Virus record (IMG/VR): IMGVR_UViG_3300028832_000110
Location: 32,001 to 96,000 of that record
Source of the DNA: a virus
Taxonomy: Duplodnaviria > Caudoviricetes
DNA: 64,000 nt
Direction: 5' to 3' (one strand)
Each line of letters begins with the position of its first letter. The first letter of the stretch is position 1. Below, in pieces: positions 2,077-60,098 of the stretch. A program made the translations under genes and the position numbers. A model generated the notes under the pieces. That model saw only the letters and a program-made list of their open reading frames with translations, had not been told where the DNA came from and ran no database searches.

Positions 2077-2679
2077 ATGTATATAAGCAATAAAGACGTT
2101 ATCAACGCAGTGGCAGGAGTTATTTATGCCATGCACCCCTACCACAATCCTGAGAATATCGACGATATTATTGAGGCGATTGAAAAAGCATGGAAAGAAC
2201 GTGTTCCAGAAAAAGAGAAGAAAAATACGTTCAAGTTGGTTGATTTCGGAGAATGGGTAGAACTAAAAGCAGTTCTACATGAAATCCTCTGGAATGTAGA
2301 AGCGTTTAAGCAACTGAATATTTCCCGTAAGCTCAAAGACAAAGGCGTAAAGGATGCAGATGACAAACGCAATCAAGGATTCAGAGTTTCGGACAGATAT
2401 TCGGTGGAAACTGAGGACAGTAGATATTCTGACTTCATAGACCTCGACGCTTGCTTGCAGAATATTATTCGCCAGATAAGCGTACTCAAAGAATCCGATG
2501 AAGACTGCTTCCTCTGCAAGTATGCAGAAAGCTATGGCAGCATGAAGCCCGGGGATGAACGTTGTGCCAACTGCCTTTGCAATCCCCAAATAAAATTCCT
2601 CAGAGAGCCGCATCCGATGTCGCTAAAACCTCGAAAAGACTGGACGCAGGAAGAAATAGAGAAATACGATCTACACTAA
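2077..2679 (+). CDS. hypothetical protein with a C-terminal Cys cluster
   Basis: 200-aa ORF; CFLC...CANCLC suggests metal binding. Confidence 0.7.
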   Translation: MYISNKDVINAVAGVIYAMHPYHNPENIDDIIEAIEKAWKERVPEKEKKNTFKLVDFGEWVELKAVLHEILWNVEAFKQLNISRKLKDKGVKDADDKRNQGFRVSDRYSVETEDSRYSDFIDLDACLQNIIRQISVLKESDEDCFLCKYAESYGSMKPGDERCANCLCNPQIKFLREPHPMSLKPRKDWTQEEIEKYDLH

Positions 2680-5583: not shown

Positions 5584-6774
5584 TTAAATTGTTAATAAAA
5601 AGGGTTTATCCATTTTCAATAATCCTCTCTCAAACGGTGCTACCTTCAACATCTTCTCATTCAAGAATAGGCTACACCTTATGTTGTATGAAGAGTAATG
5701 CCCCAATGTGCCGAGGAAGGAATTGATGGAACGGTACGTTGATTCCACGTCATCAAAATCCAGTCTGCTCATGCTGACCTTGGTACGGTATAAGGTGGCA
5801 TTCGATATATAGCTTCTGAATGGCTTGATGAAAGCACCGAGAAATTCAGCACCGATACCAACCTCCCTAATCTGCAACTTTCCCATGTGTAGATTTACTT
5901 CAAGTATTTCGTTTAGGAATTCCCTAATCTTAGGCACACTCTCCAATAGCTTCTTTTTGTCATGGCAGACAATGTACGAGTCATCAACGTATCTGCCGAA
6001 ATGCTTGAACTTCAGCACTCTCTTAACGAATTGGTCATAGACGTTGAGATAGACATTGCTGAACAACTGGCTTGTGAGGTTTCCGATTGGCAAACCACAA
6101 CCCTCATTCGTCCAAAATAGGCTCTTGTTTCTGTCAAGGCCATCCCAATCCTCCTTTTTGCCTACGACACGGCATTTCTTAGTGGGATCAAGCATGATGA
6201 TTTCCTTCGTCAGCCACAATACGAAATCTATATCCAGATATTCGCCCCAAGTCTGCTTGGTATCTACGCATACTCTGTGACTGCGCATTTTCTCGATGGT
6301 TTTTGTGGCAATATCCAGAAGGAATACTCTTTTGATGTGCATGAAATAGCCTCGAACATCAAGGCTCATAACATAGCACTTTCGCTGATAGTTTCGGCTT
6401 TCGCTCAATATATGGTGTCTCAGTCTCTCAATACCATAATGCGTACCGCGTCCGGGGATGCAGGAATAGCTGTCGGCAATAAATGTATGCTCAAAAAGCA
6501 CATGGGTATAGTTGTAGTAAAGGTGATGCACTACTCTGTCACGGAATTGTGCTGCAAAGACCTCTCGCTTCATCGGACGTTCAACGATGAAACAAGAAGA
6601 GGGTTCTGGCTGATACCTACGAGCCAACAAATCGTCTGCAAGGCTTTCGAGATTCTTCATCAGATTTTTCTCAAAGGTCTTGACGTATGGCTTATTGGAC
6701 TTATGCTGCTTTGCACACAAAAACGCTGCGTACAAATCTAACATCAAAGCCTTTTTAGTAAGTACATATTCCAT
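5584..6774 (-). CDS. DGR reverse transcriptase
   Basis: KREVFAAQFRDRVVHH, SYSCIPGRGTH, LDVRGYF, GLPIGNLTSQLFSNVYL (DGR-type SQ motif) and YVDD; adjacent to the TR. Confidence 0.95.
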   Translation of the reverse strand: MEYVLTKKALMLDLYAAFLCAKQHKSNKPYVKTFEKNLMKNLESLADDLLARRYQPEPSSCFIVERPMKREVFAAQFRDRVVHHLYYNYTHVLFEHTFIADSYSCIPGRGTHYGIERLRHHILSESRNYQRKCYVMSLDVRGYFMHIKRVFLLDIATKTIEKMRSHRVCVDTKQTWGEYLDIDFVLWLTKEIIMLDPTKKCRVVGKKEDWDGLDRNKSLFWTNEGCGLPIGNLTSQLFSNVYLNVYDQFVKRVLKFKHFGRYVDDSYIVCHDKKKLLESVPKIREFLNEILEVNLHMGKLQIREVGIGAEFLGAFIKPFRSYISNATLYRTKVSMSRLDFDDVESTYRSINSFLGTLGHYSSYNIRCSLFLNEKMLKVAPFERGLLKMDKPFLLTI

Positions 6775-6813: not shown

Positions 6814-7010
6814 AATAATTGCTGAACCGGGCGCACAGAAAAACCGTTGAACCGATTGTTGTTGTTCTGCGGATTGACATCAGACGCATTGAAGTTCAAG
6901 TTGCGACCATTCGTTGAGGAATTCAACGTAGATGCCCAATAGTTGCCGTTCGACCCACGATTGTTCAACGTCGTACCATTGTAGTTGCCGGACGCGGGGA
7001 AGAAAACAAC
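6814..7010 (-). repeat. DGR template repeat (TR)
   Basis: AAC-rich (17 Asn codons in the VR reading frame); aligns without gaps to 7887-8083 (-) and 59846-60039 (+), with mismatches almost all at TR adenines. Confidence 0.95.
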
Positions 7011-7195: not shown

Positions 7196-7774
7196 TTATA
7201 GTAAGGCAGCAGCCTGCGCTTTCATCTTGCTAATAAACTCCTTGTCTTGAATCGGAGTCGTAGCTTCAGCAGGATATGAGATTATCTGCGACACTATTGA
7301 GAATAGTCCGCTGCGACCCAAAGCCTGCGCCTGCTGCTGTTGCTCGTCTTTCTTTTTCTTGTCTTTGCCCTCCTTTTCAGGACAACTTGCTTTCCATGTC
7401 TGGAACATCAAATCAAGGGTCTCGAAATCAGAGCCGAGGCTACTGGCATCGACATCAACGTAGAAATTCTCAGATTCAGAGCCTTCGTTGCCGAGTACGT
7501 CATAGTCGGGAATATATTTGCTCAGACTTTCTACTGGAAATCCTATCATAACATATTCGCCATCCTTCATCTTGTATCGGTTTGCGGAAAGCATCTTCTG
7601 ATCTCCACGCTGTTTCTGGAATTCCTCAGTGCAGACAATTTGCTTGATTAACCAAGCACTCCATTCGTAGGCGTGAATGAATTTACCTTCTTTGTGAAGG
7701 AAAACCCTACCCCATTTTTCGGAGTCTTGTCTGTCAGCCTCAATGGGCATTATTTCTGTTAGTTTCATATCCAA
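7196..7774 (-). CDS. DGR accessory protein, MutS domain I-like (MSL type) rather than Avd
   Basis: Sits between VR1 and TR; VFLHKEGKFIHAYEWSAWL and IGFP resemble the MutS_I mismatch-binding fold. Confidence 0.6.
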   Translation of the reverse strand: MDMKLTEIMPIEADRQDSEKWGRVFLHKEGKFIHAYEWSAWLIKQIVCTEEFQKQRGDQKMLSANRYKMKDGEYVMIGFPVESLSKYIPDYDVLGNEGSESENFYVDVDASSLGSDFETLDLMFQTWKASCPEKEGKDKKKKDEQQQQAQALGRSGLFSIVSQIISYPAEATTPIQDKEFISKMKAQAAALL

Positions 7775-7809: not shown

Positions 7810-7874
7810 CCAACCACCCCTCTCCGTTTCGCGTAGCCGCTTGTGGGCGGCTGCTTCACTTCGTGGGTGGTTGG
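7810..7874 (-). promoter_or_regulatory. DGR target-recognition hairpin downstream of VR1
   Basis: On the minus strand, AGCCGC-CCACAA-GCGGCTAC lies inside an outer stem CCAACCACCC/GGGTGGTTGG; the same core follows VR2. Confidence 0.75.
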
Positions 7875-7886
7875 GTTGAGAGGGTA

Positions 7887-8083
7887 AATAATTACTGAAC
7901 CGGGCGCACAGAAAAACCGAGGAACCGATTGTGATTGTACTGCGGATAGACATCAGACGCATTGAAGCACAAGTAGCGACCATTCGTAGAGGAACTCAAC
8001 GTAGACGCCCAATAGCTGCCGTACGACCCACGATCGTACAACGTCGAACCATAGTAGCCGCCGGACGCGGGGAAGAAAACAAC
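7887..8083 (-). repeat. DGR variable repeat VR1
   Basis: About 19 substitutions at TR adenines, one internal C>T and a C>T that creates the stop codon; lies at the 3' end of 7892..8923. Confidence 0.95.
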
Positions 8084-8923
8084 CTTACCATTGATCTTTG
8101 ACGTGAATACGCGACCTGCAACACCAGAGCCTTGATAATCCGAAACCCATTCGCAGTTACAGTTATCATACAGCTCTTGGAACTCAGCAGAAGTAGGCAT
8201 ACGCCAAGGCGCTTTACAATTAGCACGGGCGGCATCCTGCGAGGGAGCGATATTGCCGTTAAGGGCGGCTCCTGGGGTGGAGGCATAGGGACCGTCGTTT
8301 GAAGAGCCGAAGTCGTAACCTGAACCCTCTGGATGGCCTTCGGTATTTCCCCAAGAGAAATACGAACCCCAACCCGTAGGCGAATCGGCGAAGCCGTTGG
8401 CCTTGGTGACATCAATGTTACGAGTAGCCCACTTCAAGCCAGAGGGCAGTCCGAGGTCTACCCAAAGTGCATCGGGTGAGTCGCTTTCCTCCAATCCCGA
8501 CATATTGACCACGTTGAAACGTGTGCCGTCGTACTGGAGCATAACGGTTGTGCGAGGGCGTATAACGCCGGGCTGCAAGGCAGCACCATTGACGTAAATA
8601 TCCTTTGCACCAGTGTTATTTACGTTCAGAGTAGCATTCACTACGTTTACGGCATTGTTGAAGAATACGGTTACGAGTCCATTCTTCAAGAGAATGAAGT
8701 CCGTAATAGCAACAACCTTTGCCGCTGTTGTAGCAGCCGTTGAGCAAGTGCCGTAGCCGACACCTGCCTTTGCCATGTCCTGCATAAGTTGCTGTGCAGG
8801 CCACTGTCCTGCGGGTGTGCCGTCATTGTCGAAGAGCATGACCTTCTGCGTTGCGCTTGGGGCTGCTGATGGCAATGAGGCTAATACCGCTTTCAGAGTT
8901 ACCAGAATATCTTCCGAAGTCAT
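7892..8923 (-). CDS. DGR target 1: tail-associated receptor-binding protein with a C-terminal CLec-like (DUF1566/Fib_succ_major-like) domain
   Basis: Tail-fibre-like N-terminus (GYGTCSTAATTAAK, TLNVNNTGAKDI); VDLGLPSGLKWATRN, WRMPT..EF.EL and GFSVRPVQ; contains VR1. Confidence 0.85.
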   Translation of the reverse strand: MTSEDILVTLKAVLASLPSAAPSATQKVMLFDNDGTPAGQWPAQQLMQDMAKAGVGYGTCSTAATTAAKVVAITDFILLKNGLVTVFFNNAVNVVNATLNVNNTGAKDIYVNGAALQPGVIRPRTTVMLQYDGTRFNVVNMSGLEESDSPDALWVDLGLPSGLKWATRNIDVTKANGFADSPTGWGSYFSWGNTEGHPEGSGYDFGSSNDGPYASTPGAALNGNIAPSQDAARANCKAPWRMPTSAEFQELYDNCNCEWVSDYQGSGVAGRVFTSKINGKVVFFPASGGYYGSTLYDRGSYGSYWASTLSSSTNGRYLCFNASDVYPQYNHNRFLGFSVRPVQ

Positions 8924-9589: not shown

Positions 9590-10381
9590 TTACTCAGAAG
9601 GGAACATTTCTGCAATGTCCTCAGAGGTGGCATAGGCAACACCGTCCAGCTTCTCTTTGTCAGCAGCAGAAAGCAGACCTGCCTGACCGCCAACGCCAGA
9701 TGTAGAAGGAGTCGCGCTTTGCACGGTCTTCTTGTGCGGAGTGATGACACCCTGCGCGTTCTGGGTGATGCTGTCGATGAAGGTCAGACCGCTACCGTCG
9801 GCTGTTGGGTCTTGAACGGCACTCTGAACGGTCTTGTAACCACTCAGATCAATCTTCACCGAGTAGGCGTTGAACTTATAGGCAACGGTCTTCTCGTAGT
9901 AGCCTGCGCTGCTGATGTCAGCACCTGCCTCCGGCTGATTGTCGAGAGCAGTACCGTTGGCATCGGCATAGTAGGTCTTACCCTCCACAGCCGTTTCGTC
10001 CACTGTTGCAACGTAAACGTCAATAGCGACAACACCAACGTCAGTTCCGGCCTTAACCGTCTCACCTGCGCCCTCAACCCAATCGCTTGTGGTTGTGGCA
10101 TCGGAGGTAAGGTTGTAGACCTTGCCGAGATTACCTTCAACGAGCAGTGCCGATGTCAGCTCATTAGCGGCTTTGTTGCCACCGGGCTTGTAAACGGCAG
10201 AGATTTCGCTACTGATCTTGGTCAGCAGCTCAGCGAGAGCATCTTCTACGGTAGAAGCGTTCAGACCTTGGATAGCCTCAATGGCCTTGCTCTGGAGAAT
10301 AGCCTCCAAATAGCCTTTGAACTCCAGAAGTTCGGCAGCGCGAATAATGCGCTCTGGATTTGTCAGATTAATGTTTGCCAT
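9590..10381 (-). CDS. tail fibre-associated protein
   Basis: GKVYN, IDLSGY and GLLSAADKEKLDG fibre motifs. Confidence 0.75.
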   Translation of the reverse strand: MANINLTNPERIIRAAELLEFKGYLEAILQSKAIEAIQGLNASTVEDALAELLTKISSEISAVYKPGGNKAANELTSALLVEGNLGKVYNLTSDATTTSDWVEGAGETVKAGTDVGVVAIDVYVATVDETAVEGKTYYADANGTALDNQPEAGADISSAGYYEKTVAYKFNAYSVKIDLSGYKTVQSAVQDPTADGSGLTFIDSITQNAQGVITPHKKTVQSATPSTSGVGGQAGLLSAADKEKLDGVAYATSEDIAEMFPSE

Positions 10382-10449
10382 AATCTACTAAAATTTTAAG
10401 TTGTTAATAAAAAAGTGAAATATTGGTTGTGGATTTCTCCACGTCCATT

Positions 10450-10701
10450 TTAGGGTTGTTGATCCGGGAACATTTCAGCGATGTCGGACTGCGATGCAAA
10501 TGAATCGGGATTTATGTCCTCGATTTCGATGCTTCCGTCTTTGATTGCGTCGGAGTCGATGCTGTCATGCTCTGGGATTCCACCATTCGGGAAGACAAAG
10601 AGCTTATCCCAAATTTCAAGGCTCAGAAGATGGAGTTTTCCATCCCTTTCCTCAAAGTGGTATTTTACGCCACCGTTGATGTAGATTTTTTCTTTAGCCA
10701 T
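10450..10701 (-). CDS. small tail-associated protein
   Basis: 83 aa; SIDSDAIKDGSI motif; C-terminal DIAEMFP shared with 9590..10381. Confidence 0.65.
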   Translation of the reverse strand: MAKEKIYINGGVKYHFEERDGKLHLLSLEIWDKLFVFPNGGIPEHDSIDSDAIKDGSIEIEDINPDSFASQSDIAEMFPDQQP

Positions 10702-36104: not shown

Positions 36105-36204
36105 CAAATTTAGATTTTATTTCACGTAAATAGATATAAATATTCTGAAATCTTTACATTTTTGATGATAAATATCTATTTTGATAGAGAAATTTCTAAA
36201 TTTG
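36105..36204. promoter_or_regulatory. divergent promoters for the head/tail operon (-) and terminase operon (+)
   Basis: TAAATTTG on minus (36105-36112) and on plus (36197-36204). Confidence 0.65.
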
Positions 36205-36224
36205 CGCATGAATTTCAAAGATAT

Positions 36225-38885
36225 ATGCAGATGAATAATTTTACGGGTTTTTTGACAAAAGATGGAAAACCAGTGCTGACGAATGAATTCATAAACGAAT
36301 TGCGGGAGCGAGAAAAAGACAAAATCCAGTCGAATAATTTCATCGCTCAACTCGGCCCACAGGAAGACGATTTACACGCAAGCGTTGACATTCTCATTAC
36401 TGGAGGAAATCGTGGCGGCGGCAAAGCCAACCCATACGACACGCCCATAATTACGCCCGACGGCACAAAGTTAATGGGCGATCTGAAAATCGGCGACAGA
36501 ATTTGTACGCCATACGAGGGTGTTCAGAGAGTGACGAATATTTTCGAGAAAGGAATGAACACCATCTACACCTTCCATTTCGATGACGGTACGACGTTGC
36601 AGTGTATGGATGAACACCGATTCTGGGCGAAGAAAGTATGTTCCGGCGATTTTAAGGAATATACGGCGCGGGAGTTGATGGATAACTATAAAATCGACGC
36701 GAAATTTCCGATGTCACTGCGTCGCGGAAAAGAACTCGTAGAAATCCCGATTTGCGGAGAGGTGGATATTAACGAGGAAATGACACCGCTTGACCTTCCA
36801 ATTCATCCCTTCATTTTCGGACATATCTGTGGCTCTGGTTCCTGGGATTTCTCAAAGCAGGGCGTTTATCTGAAGAATAGCCCGACGATTGTAAGGGCTG
36901 CTTTCAAGTACGGATATAAGGTCAAGATCATTAACGGCATTTATTATCTGCGTGGAGTAACCGACGATAACCGACGGAAAATTACGTGTTGCCGTAACGA
37001 ACAGCCATCGCGCATTCCAAAAGAATACCTTACCGCCTCCGTTCAGGCGCGTTGGGATTTGCTGCGAGGAATATTCGTTGAAAACGGCAGGTCAAAAAGC
37101 AAGCATCCGTATCTCGCAAATACCAACAAGAAATTCATCGAAGACGTGGCTACGTTAGCAAGGTCTCTGGGAATGTGGGCGAAAGTATCTGAGGTTTTGG
37201 ATGACCCCGAACGCATAGGACAATGGCAGGTTCAGATTATTGCGCCTAATGACAAGGATATTTGGGTAAAAACCACATACAAGGAACGTGCCCACGAAAA
37301 TGCCGCAAAACCCAAAGACCCAAGCAGTCGCGGTTGCCTCACGAAAAAAGTGCTGTACGTCACCAAAAACAAGACGAAGAAAAATTGCAGGTGCATAACC
37401 GTTAGCGGAAACCACCATTTGTACCTCAGTGATGACTTCACGATAAATCACAATACCTTCACCTTGCTCATGGAGCCGATGTACGACATCGACAACCCCC
37501 GCTTCAACGGCATTATATTCCGTAAGGAGAAAGATGACCTCACGAATATCATCCGTGACAGCCGACTCCTATATTCGCCATTCGGACACTTCAATAAGTC
37601 CAAAGACGATTTGACATGGTACTTCGACAGCCAAGCCGAATTGTCTCTGACCTACTACGCCGATGCCTACGATGACTTCAAAGACAGATTCCAAGGCCGA
37701 CAATACAGCTATATCGGCATTGACGAGATTACGCAGATAGAATACGAGAAATTCAAGTATCTCATTACCTGTAACCGTAATGCCGCCAACATCAAAAACC
37801 GTATCATCGGCACTTGCAACCCCGATCCCTTGTCATGGGTTAGAAAGTTCATTGACTGGTGGATTGGAGAGGATGGTTTCGCCATTCCAGAGCGCAATGG
37901 CGTGATACGCTACTGCTATATGAAGGGCGATAGCGTAGATACCATTGTTTGGGGTGACACTCCCGAAGAGGTCTATGAGCAATGCAAAGACGAGATTGAT
38001 AAGCTGTGGCAACCCGAATACGGTGAAATGGGCTTTAGGAAAGAGACCATGTTCACCAAATCCGTTACCTTCATCCGTGCTGAACTGAAATATAACAAGA
38101 AACTGCTTCAGACCGACCCCAACTATGTAGGTGGTCTGGCACAGCAGGGAGAGGAACAGCAAGCCCGTGACCTTCAAGGCAACTGGAACTTCATGTCGAT
38201 GGGCGATGACCTTATCAAAATGGTGCATTTGCAGCGTTGCTTCCAGAATCCTCAGATGCGAGGCGACGGCGTACACAGAGCAACTTGCGACGTGGCGTTT
38301 ACTGGAGGTGACAACTGCGTGTTGTGGCATTGGATTGGTTGGCACGTCGAAGATGTGTTTGTATGTAAGTTGGATAGCGTAGATACTTGCCGTGCTATAA
38401 AAGCCAAACTGGAGGAATGGGGTGTGTTGGAAAAGAACTTCACCTACGACCTCAACGGCCTTGGTCAAACATTCAAAGGATTTTTCAAGGAAGCCCGCCC
38501 ATTCAACAACGTGGAGGCAGTGGCGCAAAGATTCAAGAATATTTACGACAACAAGAAATCTCAGTGTATGTATCTCTTCGCAAAGAAAATCATTGCCGGA
38601 GAGATCAGTTTCAACGAAGACATTCTCAGACGGAAGTTTGAGGTGGGAAAGAAAAATGGTAGAAAAGGGCAGGTGATGTACCTCGCCGACATTCTGCAAC
38701 TGGAGCGCAAATGCGTGAGGCAGGATGAAAGCAAAGCCGATAAGGGTTGGTGTATCATAAAGAAAGAGCAGATGAAACAGTTGGTTGGGTGGTCGCCCGA
38801 CTTCTGGGAGTCGCTGATGATGCGGCAGGACTTTGAGGTTAGCCAAAGGACAATAGCCATCCCTTCATGGATTCGTAATTTCTAA
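36225..38885 (+). CDS. terL: terminase large subunit containing an intein
   Basis: Walker A GGNRGGGK|T interrupted by the intein, Walker B IGIDE, GTCNP coupling motif, nuclease DVAFTGGD and SPD; start placed at the ATG after the -7 box (ORF track starts at 36162). Confidence 0.92.
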   Translation: MQMNNFTGFLTKDGKPVLTNEFINELREREKDKIQSNNFIAQLGPQEDDLHASVDILITGGNRGGGKANPYDTPIITPDGTKLMGDLKIGDRICTPYEGVQRVTNIFEKGMNTIYTFHFDDGTTLQCMDEHRFWAKKVCSGDFKEYTARELMDNYKIDAKFPMSLRRGKELVEIPICGEVDINEEMTPLDLPIHPFIFGHICGSGSWDFSKQGVYLKNSPTIVRAAFKYGYKVKIINGIYYLRGVTDDNRRKITCCRNEQPSRIPKEYLTASVQARWDLLRGIFVENGRSKSKHPYLANTNKKFIEDVATLARSLGMWAKVSEVLDDPERIGQWQVQIIAPNDKDIWVKTTYKERAHENAAKPKDPSSRGCLTKKVLYVTKNKTKKNCRCITVSGNHHLYLSDDFTINHNTFTLLMEPMYDIDNPRFNGIIFRKEKDDLTNIIRDSRLLYSPFGHFNKSKDDLTWYFDSQAELSLTYYADAYDDFKDRFQGRQYSYIGIDEITQIEYEKFKYLITCNRNAANIKNRIIGTCNPDPLSWVRKFIDWWIGEDGFAIPERNGVIRYCYMKGDSVDTIVWGDTPEEVYEQCKDEIDKLWQPEYGEMGFRKETMFTKSVTFIRAELKYNKKLLQTDPNYVGGLAQQGEEQQARDLQGNWNFMSMGDDLIKMVHLQRCFQNPQMRGDGVHRATCDVAFTGGDNCVLWHWIGWHVEDVFVCKLDSVDTCRAIKAKLEEWGVLEKNFTYDLNGLGQTFKGFFKEARPFNNVEAVAQRFKNIYDNKKSQCMYLFAKKIIAGEISFNEDILRRKFEVGKKNGRKGQVMYLADILQLERKCVRQDESKADKGWCIIKKEQMKQLVGWSPDFWESLMMRQDFEVSQRTIAIPSWIRNF
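36426..37454 (+). mobile_element. intein (343 aa, Ala1, class 3-like) with a degenerate LAGLIDADG domain
   Basis: K|ANPYDTPIITPDG ... CRCITVSGNHHLYLSDDFTINHN|T; removing it restores GGGKT. Confidence 0.88.
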
Positions 38886-53244: not shown

Positions 53245-53910
53245 ATGAAACAAGTTACGATTAGGCTTTACAAGTTCGAGGAATTATCCTCAGAATCTAA
53301 GGCGAAAGTTATTGAGCGTGAGCGTGAACAAATTCAGCAGTGGGGAATCGACGCTTGGGATTCCGAGCATCGTGCCACTCTGGAAAAGTTTGAAGCAATT
53401 TTCGATGTAAACGTCAAGCATTGGGAAGTGAATGATTATTCTCATAATTATCAGTTCACTTTCAACAATGATTTCTACGGCATGGATGCAAGCGAAATCA
53501 CGGGCAAATATTTGCTCCGTTTCCTCAACTCCATTTATTACGATGTACGCAGCGGCAAATATTTCAGTTGCGGTCAGCGTTACGACGAGAACGGCAAATT
53601 TCACTACTCCTGCAAGCATTCAAAAATTCTGTGGGAAGAATTTAATTGCCCTCTCACTGGAGTTTGCTACGACAACGAAATCTTGAAACCGATCTGGGAT
53701 TGGCACAAGAAACCGAATTGGAATTTATCTCTGGAAAATCTGGTAGATGAATGCCTTGAAAGTTTCTTCAATTCGTGGGAGCAGGAAATGCTCTATTGCG
53801 GAAGCGATGAATATTGCATCCAAGAATTGACGGAATCGAGTGCTTACGAAGACACGCTCTATTTTGAGGACGGAACTGAGTTCAAAGGAATCTACGAGGA
53901 TGCAGCCTAA
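53245..53910 (+). CDS. conserved acidic hypothetical protein
   Basis: LYKFEELS.E.KAK.IE, CPLTGVCYD and YFEDG motifs recurrent in phage/plasmid early genes. Confidence 0.75.
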   Translation: MKQVTIRLYKFEELSSESKAKVIEREREQIQQWGIDAWDSEHRATLEKFEAIFDVNVKHWEVNDYSHNYQFTFNNDFYGMDASEITGKYLLRFLNSIYYDVRSGKYFSCGQRYDENGKFHYSCKHSKILWEEFNCPLTGVCYDNEILKPIWDWHKKPNWNLSLENLVDECLESFFNSWEQEMLYCGSDEYCIQELTESSAYEDTLYFEDGTEFKGIYEDAA

Positions 53911-53971: not shown

Positions 53972-54637
53972 ATGAGAATCAGGCAAGAAACCATTGATAT
54001 TTTGCAGGCGCAAGGTATCAGCATTCGTTGGTATGGTGAATCCACCTACGAAGAGTTCAAGAAAAATCAGTGGGAAAAGCAGTACAAAAAATGGTTTGAT
54101 TATTCAAAGTCATCGTGCAAGGAACTTAACCCACCGAAAAATGACGGCTCGTATGAGAGTTGGAATTACGACACTCTTGCAGAGTACGAGGAATCTATCA
54201 AGAAATTCTGCGACCAAATTATTGACAGGCATTGCAGCCCCTACGAATACGACACGTTATTTGTCGAGCACGATAATGGTCAGATTTTGGTCAAGAAAGA
54301 AAACGTGAAATCTAAGGAGATTACAGTTGACTATGTTTTGAAGTTGGTTGAGAAAGACAGAAAAACCTACGCTGGAACATACGGAAAATTCGCTATGGAA
54401 ATGCAGCGGATTTGCAAGGAAATGGGATATACCACAAGTTTGACGGTTTATCCCACGACCTACGGCATCGGTGTTTGGTTGTTCTATAATTTCCATGCCG
54501 ACACCCATATAGAAAACGTTACGAAAATCATGCAGCAGAAAGGCATAGAATTCTACAACGAATATTCTGATAAGCGTTGGGTGTATAGATTCAAGGTATC
54601 GAAAAAGCGTGAGAATCTGGAGCGAATTTATTCGTAG
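53972..54637 (+). CDS. hypothetical protein
   Basis: 221 aa, hairpin leader. Confidence 0.75.
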   Translation: MRIRQETIDILQAQGISIRWYGESTYEEFKKNQWEKQYKKWFDYSKSSCKELNPPKNDGSYESWNYDTLAEYEESIKKFCDQIIDRHCSPYEYDTLFVEHDNGQILVKKENVKSKEITVDYVLKLVEKDRKTYAGTYGKFAMEMQRICKEMGYTTSLTVYPTTYGIGVWLFYNFHADTHIENVTKIMQQKGIEFYNEYSDKRWVYRFKVSKKRENLERIYS

Positions 54638-59150: not shown

Positions 59151-59239
59151 ATCTACTCCAGAGAGTACGATTAACTTCGTATTCTCTGCCTATTTCGAGA
59201 GTTTTTTAACCCTATTTATTAATTTAAAAACATTCAATT

Positions 59240-60034
59240 ATGACAGAGAGACAAAATTTTCTCCTTGAACTCTACCGAGAATTCGGTGACAAGGCGCAGA
59301 ACGCATTGGATTTCGTTATCGCTAACGATGGCGGCTCAATCCTCAGACCACAAGCAAATGCACAAGCAAATGCTAATGCAGGAACTATCGAGGTCTATGA
59401 CTTCAAGAATCCAGAAGTTATGCTGAAGGAATTCTATGAAATCAAAGCCAGATTCTTAGTCATCAACAACCACCTCATTAAAAAAGACGTGGAAGATGAA
59501 CTCCTTGACACGCAGGCTGACGGCCTCTACACCTATCTCCGAAACCTCCGCAAGAGAATCGGCGACATCAACTCCGTAAAACTTCAAGACCAACCATTCG
59601 AGGTTGTTGACTTGGGATTGCCCTCTGGCAGAAAATGGGCGAATATGAACCTTGGTGCTACCAAGCCCAACGAAACAGGTTTATACCTCACCCACGAAGA
59701 TGCCTGCAACTTCAAGTTTGAAGACGGATGGAAAATGCCGACTGACGATGACTTCGTAGAACTCTGCGACAACTGCGAACACGAATGGAAGGAAATTGAT
59801 GGTGTCTATGGTCAGATGTTTACATCTAAGATTAATGGCAATTCAGTTTTCTTCCCCGCGTCCGGCTTCTACAATGGTACGACGTTGTACTATCGTGGGT
59901 CGTACGGCCTCTATTGGGCCGCTACGTTGTATTCCTCTTCGAGTGGTCGCCTCTTGTACTTCCTTGCGTCTGATGTCAATCCGCAGAGCAGCTACGATCG
60001 GTTCTACGGTTTTTCTGTGCGCCCGGTTCAGTAA
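59240..60034 (+). CDS. DGR target 2 (remote): unknown N-terminus plus CLec-like (DUF1566/Fib_succ_major-like) domain
   Basis: VDLGLPSGRKWANMN, WKMPT..DF.EL and GFSVRPVQ; the 3' end is VR2. Confidence 0.9.
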   Translation: MTERQNFLLELYREFGDKAQNALDFVIANDGGSILRPQANAQANANAGTIEVYDFKNPEVMLKEFYEIKARFLVINNHLIKKDVEDELLDTQADGLYTYLRNLRKRIGDINSVKLQDQPFEVVDLGLPSGRKWANMNLGATKPNETGLYLTHEDACNFKFEDGWKMPTDDDFVELCDNCEHEWKEIDGVYGQMFTSKINGNSVFFPASGFYNGTTLYYRGSYGLYWAATLYSSSSGRLLYFLASDVNPQSSYDRFYGFSVRPVQ

Positions 60035-60039
60035 TTATT
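59846..60039 (+). repeat. DGR variable repeat VR2
   Basis: 194-bp ungapped match to the TR; about 22 substitutions at TR adenines, one T>G and the stop-creating C>T. Confidence 0.95.
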
Positions 60040-60051
60040 CAACCGCGAAAC

Positions 60052-60098
60052 CCGTCTGCCGACAAAGCCGCCACCAAGCGGCTACAAAAGGCAGACGG
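60052..60098 (+). promoter_or_regulatory. DGR target-recognition hairpin downstream of VR2
   Basis: AGCCGC-CACCAA-GCGGCTAC inside an outer stem CCGTCTGCC/GGCAGACGG. Confidence 0.75.

Follow-up and report, generated by a model that had tools for sequence, protein, structure and literature searches.

A remote lectin-type protein as second target of a phage diversity-generating retroelement, with a distant link to Sequestin and a possible role in counter-defence

The retroelement and its two targets

The subject of this report is the diversity-generating retroelement (DGR) of a large phage (Duplodnaviria; Caudoviricetes) and, above all, the second of the two genes into which it writes. The stretch of DNA analysed, hereafter the window, is 64,000 nucleotides long and corresponds to bases 32001-96000 of a 107,405-bp IMG/VR virus record (IMGVR_UViG_3300028832_000110) judged 99% complete. 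The DGR cassette occupies the minus strand near the start of the window, and includes a reverse transcriptase (RT), a template repeat (TR), an accessory open reading frame (ORF) and a first target (target 1) that ends in a variable repeat (VR1). The second target (target 2), an ORF of 264 aa at 59240-60034 (+), ends in a variable repeat of its own (VR2).

The RT is a single ORF of 396 aa (5584-6774, -), which matches phrog_1423 (E 3e-78) and RVT_1 and carries the motifs IGNLTSQ at residue 230 and YVDD at residue 262, that is, the DGR-type motif-4 SQ signature and the YxDD motif. The TR, at 6814-7010 (-), contains 17 AAC/AAT codons. Target 1, taken to be a tail-tip protein, of 343 aa (7892-8923, -), is located directly downstream of tail genes, and its VR1 (7887-8083, -) differs from the TR at 21 positions, 19 of them TR adenines (hypergeometric P 2e-11). 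An ungapped scan with the TR on both strands of the window gave just two other matches, 7887-8083 (-) and 59843-60039 (+), and a search of the whole record showed three copies of the repeat (TR, VR1 and VR2) and no more.

The second of these matches is VR2 (59846-60039, +), which makes up the last 62 codons of target 2 and aligns to the TR gaplessly over 194 bases, with 24 mismatches. Twenty-two of them fall at TR adenines (14 A>T, 4 A>C, 4 A>G), at sites spanning 59867-60004, and with 48 adenines among the 194 positions the hypergeometric probability of finding at least 22 of 24 mismatches at adenines is 1e-13. As for the two remaining changes, one is a C>T, also present in VR1, that gives rise to the TAA stop, and the other a T>G beside a mutated adenine. 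Thirteen TR positions are substituted in both repeats, but the same base is found at only five of them, which is about the expectation for independent events; VR1 and VR2 were therefore written independently, and the alternative that VR2 was copied from VR1 was rejected on the same count. The distance from TR to VR2 is about 52.8 kb, across opposite strands of a 107.4-kb genome. The original prediction, made from the letters of the window, had described a gapless match with 22 changes at TR adenines and two elsewhere, a set of substitutions largely unlike that of VR1, and a second target some 52 kb away on the other strand; all three observations were reproduced, and there is strong support for the proposal that a single TR supplies both targets, each mutagenised independently of the other.

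Between VR1 and the TR, in the position of avd, there is an accessory ORF of 190 aa (7196-7768, -), which encodes an acidic protein (isoelectric point, pI, 5.1). Avd, on the other hand, is a small, basic four-helix bundle. Family profile searches with the accessory protein returned neither an Avd match nor a match to any other family, while its neighbour clusters in the protein atlas carry MutS_I (MutS domain I) in 17-31% of their members. By these comparisons the protein appears not to be Avd-like, and MutS domain I provides leads as to what it may be. The protein is similar to the accessory classes MSL or CH1 of Wu et al. 2018, although no avd stands alongside; Avd is not universal, being present in 74% of DGRs (PMC5758913).

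Both variable repeats are followed by a nested hairpin. Behind VR2 (60052-60098, +), a GC inner stem of 6 bp, capped by a loop of 6 nt, sits inside an outer stem of 9 bp (DNA fold -17.1 kcal/mol, z -4.65); behind VR1 (7810-7874, -; fold z -3.44) the same inner stem recurs, the outer stem differing in sequence between the two sites. No such hairpin follows the TR (fold z +0.45). Moreover, distant orthologues of target 2 (55-63% identity; loci L006-L008) keep the nested architecture with wholly different outer stems and with two inner-stem pairs changed on both sides, and the hairpin is also kept, with compensatory stem changes, behind homologous genes of unrelated phages (L031 and L035). At the sites that were located (L031:6051-6130, L035:8498-8575 and L006:6813-6870) it consists of a GC inner stem, a YACAA-like loop of 5 nt and a longer outer stem. 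In the DGR of phage BPP-1, the structure of the stem of the target-recognition hairpin/cruciform matters and its sequence does not (PMC3240598). By analogy, the nested hairpin is a candidate DGR target-recognition hairpin/cruciform and, to judge from the letters, it is a form of target site other than the published GRNA tetraloop, with a loop of 5-6 nt.

Current activity at VR2

Variation among relatives was followed in a set of 17 distinct target 2 sequences of at least 90% identity. VR2 has 26 codons whose first or second base is A, and 23 of these are variable, with a mean of 5.3 residue types and up to 10; outside VR2, 15 of 202 residues vary, with no more than two types each. Full-length orthologues with 91-92% identity come from several samples, on contigs 104-120 kb long, and are found within the same gene array.

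In two relatives, ERZ914838 and ERZ27292082, the DGR and target 2 could be read from the same contig. The VR2 of ERZ914838 differs from its own TR by 19 mismatches at adenines and 2 others, and that of ERZ27292082 by 11 and 3, respectively. The TR of ERZ27292082 (L028:3763-3959) shows 17 changes with respect to the window TR, mostly A>G, its adenines falling from 45 to 31, as if it had been overwritten by a mutagenised copy. These 17 changes are common to its VR2 (L004, near 10340-10540) and not to its VR1 (L028:2690-2886), which has 13 non-adenine mismatches; the transfer from TR to VR2 was thus more recent there than that from TR to VR1, meaning that a single DGR can write its two targets at unequal rates. 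In the phages of P0009 and P0015 and in the more distant orthologues (L006-L008), VR2 has many non-adenine mismatches to the window TR, which presumably reflect the divergence of their own TRs.

That VR2 could be a decayed copy of VR1 or of the TR, or an assembly artefact, and no longer a target of the DGR, was a possibility a priori only; at hypervariable sites, assembly from metagenomes may produce chimeras. The variation among orthologues, restricted to positions coded with adenine, the way in which VR2 tracks the altered TR of one relative, the intact reading frame and the conserved cis hairpin all speak against it. Furthermore, the RT and target 2 are about 52 and about 55 kb apart on one contig in two independent assemblies (a third assembly has the same DGR cassette), and the recurrence of this layout argues against a misjoin. 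Decay or artefact is thus exceedingly improbable, and the comparison of relatives makes it very nearly certain that VR2 is an active DGR target. Neither invariance of VR2 across populations nor a misjoin, two of the outcomes that would have told against the original prediction, was found.

Architecture of target 2

Target 2 is an acidic protein (pI 4.8), delimited by the ORF call, by a structural model, by its full-length orthologues and by VR2 at its 3' end. The highest mean Kyte-Doolittle hydropathy over 19 residues is 0.62, so there is neither a signal-peptide core nor a membrane segment. In BLASTP, target 2 aligns to target 1 at residues 104-264 only, with 43% identity, the N-terminal 105 residues or so being unrelated. 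A first AlphaFold2 (AF2) model from 11 sequences was poor (predicted local distance difference test, pLDDT, 57), and a second from 92 sequences was usable except in the variable repeat (pLDDT 74). This second model predicts helices at residues 3-29, 58-79 and 87-107, a core at 120-207 with block-mean pLDDT of 84-97, and low confidence in both the linker and the variable repeat. The N-terminal part would consist, therefore, of a helix, a linker and a helical hairpin spanning residues 58-107.

The conserved N-terminal helix (residues 1-29; 59240-59326, +) recurs on other proteins: by alignment, the first 27 residues or so form a portable module, also present on P0019, P0050, P0271-P0273 and P0275, which are small lectin-type proteins. 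The first 120 residues as a whole have just 7 relatives among 1.84 billion representatives, and no paralogue of the N-terminal module exists in the phage's own genome. The linker includes a low-complexity Ala/Asn/Gln stretch (59345-59383, +) with a 4-residue indel polymorphism among near-identical orthologues. It is followed by the helical hairpin (residues ~58-112; 59411-59575, +), Sequestin-like by the transitive homology considered below, and by the C-type-lectin-like domain of the FISUMP / Lcl_C / DUF8237 type (59597-60031, +) that is shared with target 1. The latter gives matches to Pfam Fib_succ_major (E 5e-4), Lcl_C (E 0.1) and TIGR02145 (E 0.006), all below the curated cut-offs, and the orthologues of target 2 carry the precomputed assignment PF26707 (DUF8237).

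As regards structure, a wide VIA-align search gave a sole lectin-type match, the DGR variable protein TaqVP, which is weak (Z 3.4 over 106 residues), the other matches being generic helical hairpins with Z of at most 3.9; Foldseek against PDB and BFVD returned nothing at E 0.001 or better. At the sequence level, target 2 has no match in PHROGs; megablast of the region 56-64 kb against the phage collection gave nothing, tblastn of target 2 gave one weak match, in an unannotated 4-kb record, and an exact 21-mer from the 3' end of the variable repeat had no match among viral contigs.

Genomic context and site of action

On the minus strand, a block at 2.8-35 kb of the window includes a lysis amidase, the DGR, tail proteins, a tape measure of 2450 aa and the major head protein. 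It is succeeded by terminase and portal genes (plus strand, 36-42 kb) and then by replication genes (minus strand, 42-48 kb), and the rest of the window, starting at about 49.5 kb, is an array of small plus-strand genes that show no family matches. Target 2 belongs to this array, at least 17 kb from the closest structural or packaging gene (this block covering 2.8-42 kb), and is preceded by a leader hairpin with a TTAACT loop (59160-59187, +), read from the sequence and of the kind found ahead of genes in this array. A scan for promoters and terminators around the gene gave background level only.

The orthologues of target 2 keep this position in the small-gene array. In addition, its homologues from two or more other phage backgrounds have early or small accessory genes as neighbours: the gene of P0009 opens an early operon next to an integrase, with SMC-like, RecT and nuclease genes coming after it; that of P0015 is found among PcfK, PcfJ and AntA genes; that of P0019 in the same kind of small-gene array; and that of P0275 beside an exonuclease. 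In the loci read, which cover four kinds of genomic setting, no homologue is next to tail genes, and no TR was found near the homologue genes within the loci examined. P0009 and P0017 differ from each other at VR-type positions.

The main alternative to an intracellular protein is that target 2 is a virion-associated accessory receptor-binding protein, a side fibre or decoration encoded far from the tail module, which would dock through its conserved N-terminal helix and use the helical hairpin as a coiled-coil stalk. Lectin-type phage DGR targets are classically receptor-binding proteins, and a short, conserved module at the N-terminus would equally be expected of an adaptor for docking to the virion; both points weigh against an intracellular role. 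The lectin domain of target 2 is, moreover, that of the tail-module target, at the identity given above, and is written from the same TR; its portable 27-residue module resembles a docking adaptor, direct membership in Sequestin is not obtained, and most of the phage DGR targets in the literature are proteins of the tail (PMC8144416). Against a place in the virion, homologues never stand beside tail genes in the loci read, target 2 has no structural match in PHROGs or Pfam, its gene has the leader hairpin of the small-gene array, and in the intermediates that connect it to Sequestin there is a genuine PF21825 domain, as is usual for sponges that are small and cytosolic. On balance a virion protein is unlikely, though by no means negligible.

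A second alternative also starts from a soluble, acidic protein without export signal, built on the same lectin scaffold as the adhesin: after lysis, target 2 could act extracellularly, coating receptors on neighbours or debris and, for example, blocking rival phages or avoiding wasteful adsorption. The independent mutagenesis of VR1 and VR2, however, means that their specificities are not coupled, and the context gives no sign of a late or lysis-linked gene, the lysis genes being 55 kb off and adjoining the DGR; a post-lysis lectin is accordingly improbable.

A non-virion, intracellular protein is thus the probable reading of the sequence and its context. The original prediction had placed target 2 in the hairpin-led small-gene array, with an N-terminus unrelated to that of target 1 and without evident signal peptide, and on all of these points it agrees with the results; no similarity to a structural protein was found, which would have counted against it. 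Its wider claim of a non-structural, cytoplasmic or early protein is supported indirectly, by the gene context here and in unrelated phages, the lack of an export signal and the chain to Sequestin, a virion-attached accessory binder being the less probable alternative; its further suggestion of an exclusion factor loses ground, because a surface-exposed form made in the infected cell is unlikely for a protein without export signal.

A distant link to Sequestin

PF21825 (crAss001_48) is the Sequestin family, short helical phage proteins, characteristically antiparallel homodimers or tetramers, which sequester 3'cADPR and have been shown by experiment to inhibit type I Thoeris; in SequestinA/B, a conserved E, Q and R are essential by mutagenesis (bioRxiv 10.1101/2025.07.12.664507). 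The connection of target 2 with this family is made through its homologues. P0015 and P0026, which are 46-47% identical to target 2 over approximately residues 53-264, have N-termini that pass the PF21825 gathering score, with 37.1 and 26.2 bits (cut-off 24.8), and P0009 and P0017 reach 23.7 bits, just under that cut-off. Residues 56-120 of target 2 align in BLASTP with residues 3-72 of P0015 (E 3e-9). The comparison of profiles with hhalign gives a transitive chain: the orthologues of target 2 against the P0015 group score 97% (E 8e-11), and the P0015 group against three stand-alone PF21825 members (from crAss001, Bacteroides phage BT24 and a Vibrio phage) scores 95% (E 3e-8), with nothing in the reversed-sequence controls. 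Furthermore, the residues essential in Sequestin align to E64, Q92 and R106 of target 2, which are invariant in 18 close orthologues.

Several results weigh against this connection or against its functional meaning. The PF21825 hidden Markov model (HMM) does not match target 2 at E up to 10, and the target 2 profile compared by hhalign with the stand-alone PF21825 members alone is not significant (E 0.1); since these direct comparisons fail, membership of target 2 in Sequestin is not claimed, and the link passes through one intermediate group. Hairpins of helices are a widespread fold, and the helical matches from the fold search were generic only (Z no higher than 3.9, as above). Besides, the Q and R positions are replaced in the more distant orthologues P0004, P0006, P0008 and P0014, which makes a family-wide conserved signal pocket doubtful. 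Other searches came out empty: the phage's own genome has no match to PF21825 at E up to 10, no candidate was found for short stand-alone relatives of the P0015 N-terminus, and an ESM Atlas search with residues 52-120 of target 2 yielded no usable match.

Through intermediates that pass the Pfam threshold, the hairpin of target 2 (residues ~58-112) would then be distantly related to PF21825/Sequestin, as a transitive relationship. The publication on Sequestin does not mention lectin or DGR fusions (bioRxiv 10.1101/2025.07.12.664507), and the Sequestin link of a DGR target, fused to a hypervariable lectin domain, is new.

The phage itself gives a reason to look at Thoeris. An ORF of 200 aa at 2077-2679 (+) is a homologue of the type I Thoeris inhibitor Tad5 (PF25190, 66.6 bits, cut-off 27), placed just beyond the lysis genes that adjoin the DGR, and in the same place in relatives; its presence indicates that type I Thoeris is a relevant host defence. 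The host is probably a Prevotella. A counter-defence role of target 2 that involves its Sequestin-like domain is conceivable on these grounds, at odds somewhat below even.

Proposed explanation

The explanation that is favoured, with a probability of about 0.6, is that one DGR serves two targets and that target 2 is a soluble, intracellular protein which combines a Sequestin-like hairpin with a hypervariable lectin surface. The RT, the TR and the non-Avd accessory gene would together carry out mutagenic retrohoming into VR1, at the end of the 343-aa protein adjoining the tail genes, and into VR2, at the end of the 264-aa protein 52.8 kb off on the other strand, and the comparison of relatives indicates that retrohoming into VR2 is current. 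Each target may be marked in cis by its TR-homologous 3' end and by the nested GC hairpin just beyond it, a role assigned to the hairpin after the BPP-1 model. Target 2 would most likely be soluble and made inside the infected cell, and not be part of the virion; its helical hairpin, distantly related to Sequestin, probably dimerises the protein and might still hold a pocket for a nucleotide signal, and the partner of the hypervariable lectin-type surface is probably a component of the host that evolves fast, for example a defence protein.

A more general and more tentative proposal, somewhat less probable than the counter-defence role of target 2 itself, is that DGRs serve counter-immunity too, with target 2, P0009, P0015 and their like acting as intracellular anti-defence proteins in which a dimeric sponge of the Sequestin type is joined to a DGR-diversified lectin surface. 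If true, a phage population would represent a standing library of binders against rapidly diversifying immune proteins or signals of the host, and, should the lead hold, hypermutation by DGRs would have a part in the arms race against bacterial immunity inside the cell besides its part in host recognition. The presence of a Sequestin-like domain on a hypervariable lectin protein makes a counter-defence function testable.

Other features of the genome

The terminase large subunit (36162-38885, +) is unusually long (907 aa), and its terminase matches are split between two separate stretches (approximately residues 71-321 and 432-684), a sign that it may have an extra domain or an inserted element. 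Within the small-gene array, two adjoining ORFs of 221 aa each are found at 53245-53910 (+) and 53972-54637 (+), one of them with a weak, sub-threshold Colicin_D-like match (E 9e-4).

Comparison with known systems

The model for DGRs is that of phage BPP-1 (Mtd/Avd/TR/Brt; Guo et al. 2011, PMC3240598), with which the present element shares the adenine-specific transfer from TR to VR, a VR at the C-terminus of a protein with a (here putative) lectin fold, and a GC-rich hairpin just past the VR whose stem is conserved in structure and not in sequence. It differs from BPP-1 in having two targets, one of them remote, and no Avd. The hairpin also differs, being nested here in a second stem, with a YACAA-like loop of 5-6 nt against the 4-nt GRNA, at about 34-41 nt from the stop codon.

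Two-target cassettes have been described in phages with tentaclins (Baykov et al. 2023, PMC10743442), where, as here, one TR corresponds to two different lectin-domain proteins; however, both targets of those phages are in the cassette and are read as receptor binders, whereas target 2 is remote, has no Ig-like domains and carries its VR at the C-terminus. Non-adjacent targets are common for phage-associated DGRs, and in nearly all cases their distance from the RT does not exceed 50 kb (Wu et al. 2018, PMC5758913).

With Sequestin (PF21825), target 2 has in common a predicted helical hairpin of about 50 residues of phage origin, in a family often fused to other modules, what by alignment may be the three essential residues, and the company of an anti-Thoeris gene, Tad5, in the same phage. 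Unlike Sequestin, it misses the family HMM, its hairpin lies within a longer protein (264 aa) that also has a lectin domain diversified by the DGR, and its distant orthologues do not keep the essential residues; target 2 and the family are compared here by sequence.

The closest parallel is the DGR of Quimbyvirus, whose second target is distal, on the opposite strand, judged non-structural and located in a defence-related island (Benler et al. 2021, Microbiome 9:78, PMC8008677); the idea of a remote non-structural DGR target is therefore not new, having been published there. In both cases one phage DGR has two C-type-lectin targets, one beside tail genes and the other distal and on the opposite strand, and in both A-specific variation has been shown from near-identical genomes. 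Here, however, the phage is a different and much larger one (107 kb), half a genome separates the target from the cassette, a single ORF encodes the RT, and target 2 has a Sequestin-like helical domain, the two systems being compared by arrangement. Their neighbours differ as well, those of Quimbyvirus being methyltransferases, a nuclease and a tRNA ligase, and those of target 2 unannotated small genes, with Tad5 elsewhere in the genome. Remote non-structural targets of phage DGRs have thus been known since 2021, and the family of target 2 now offers a concrete lead to their function.

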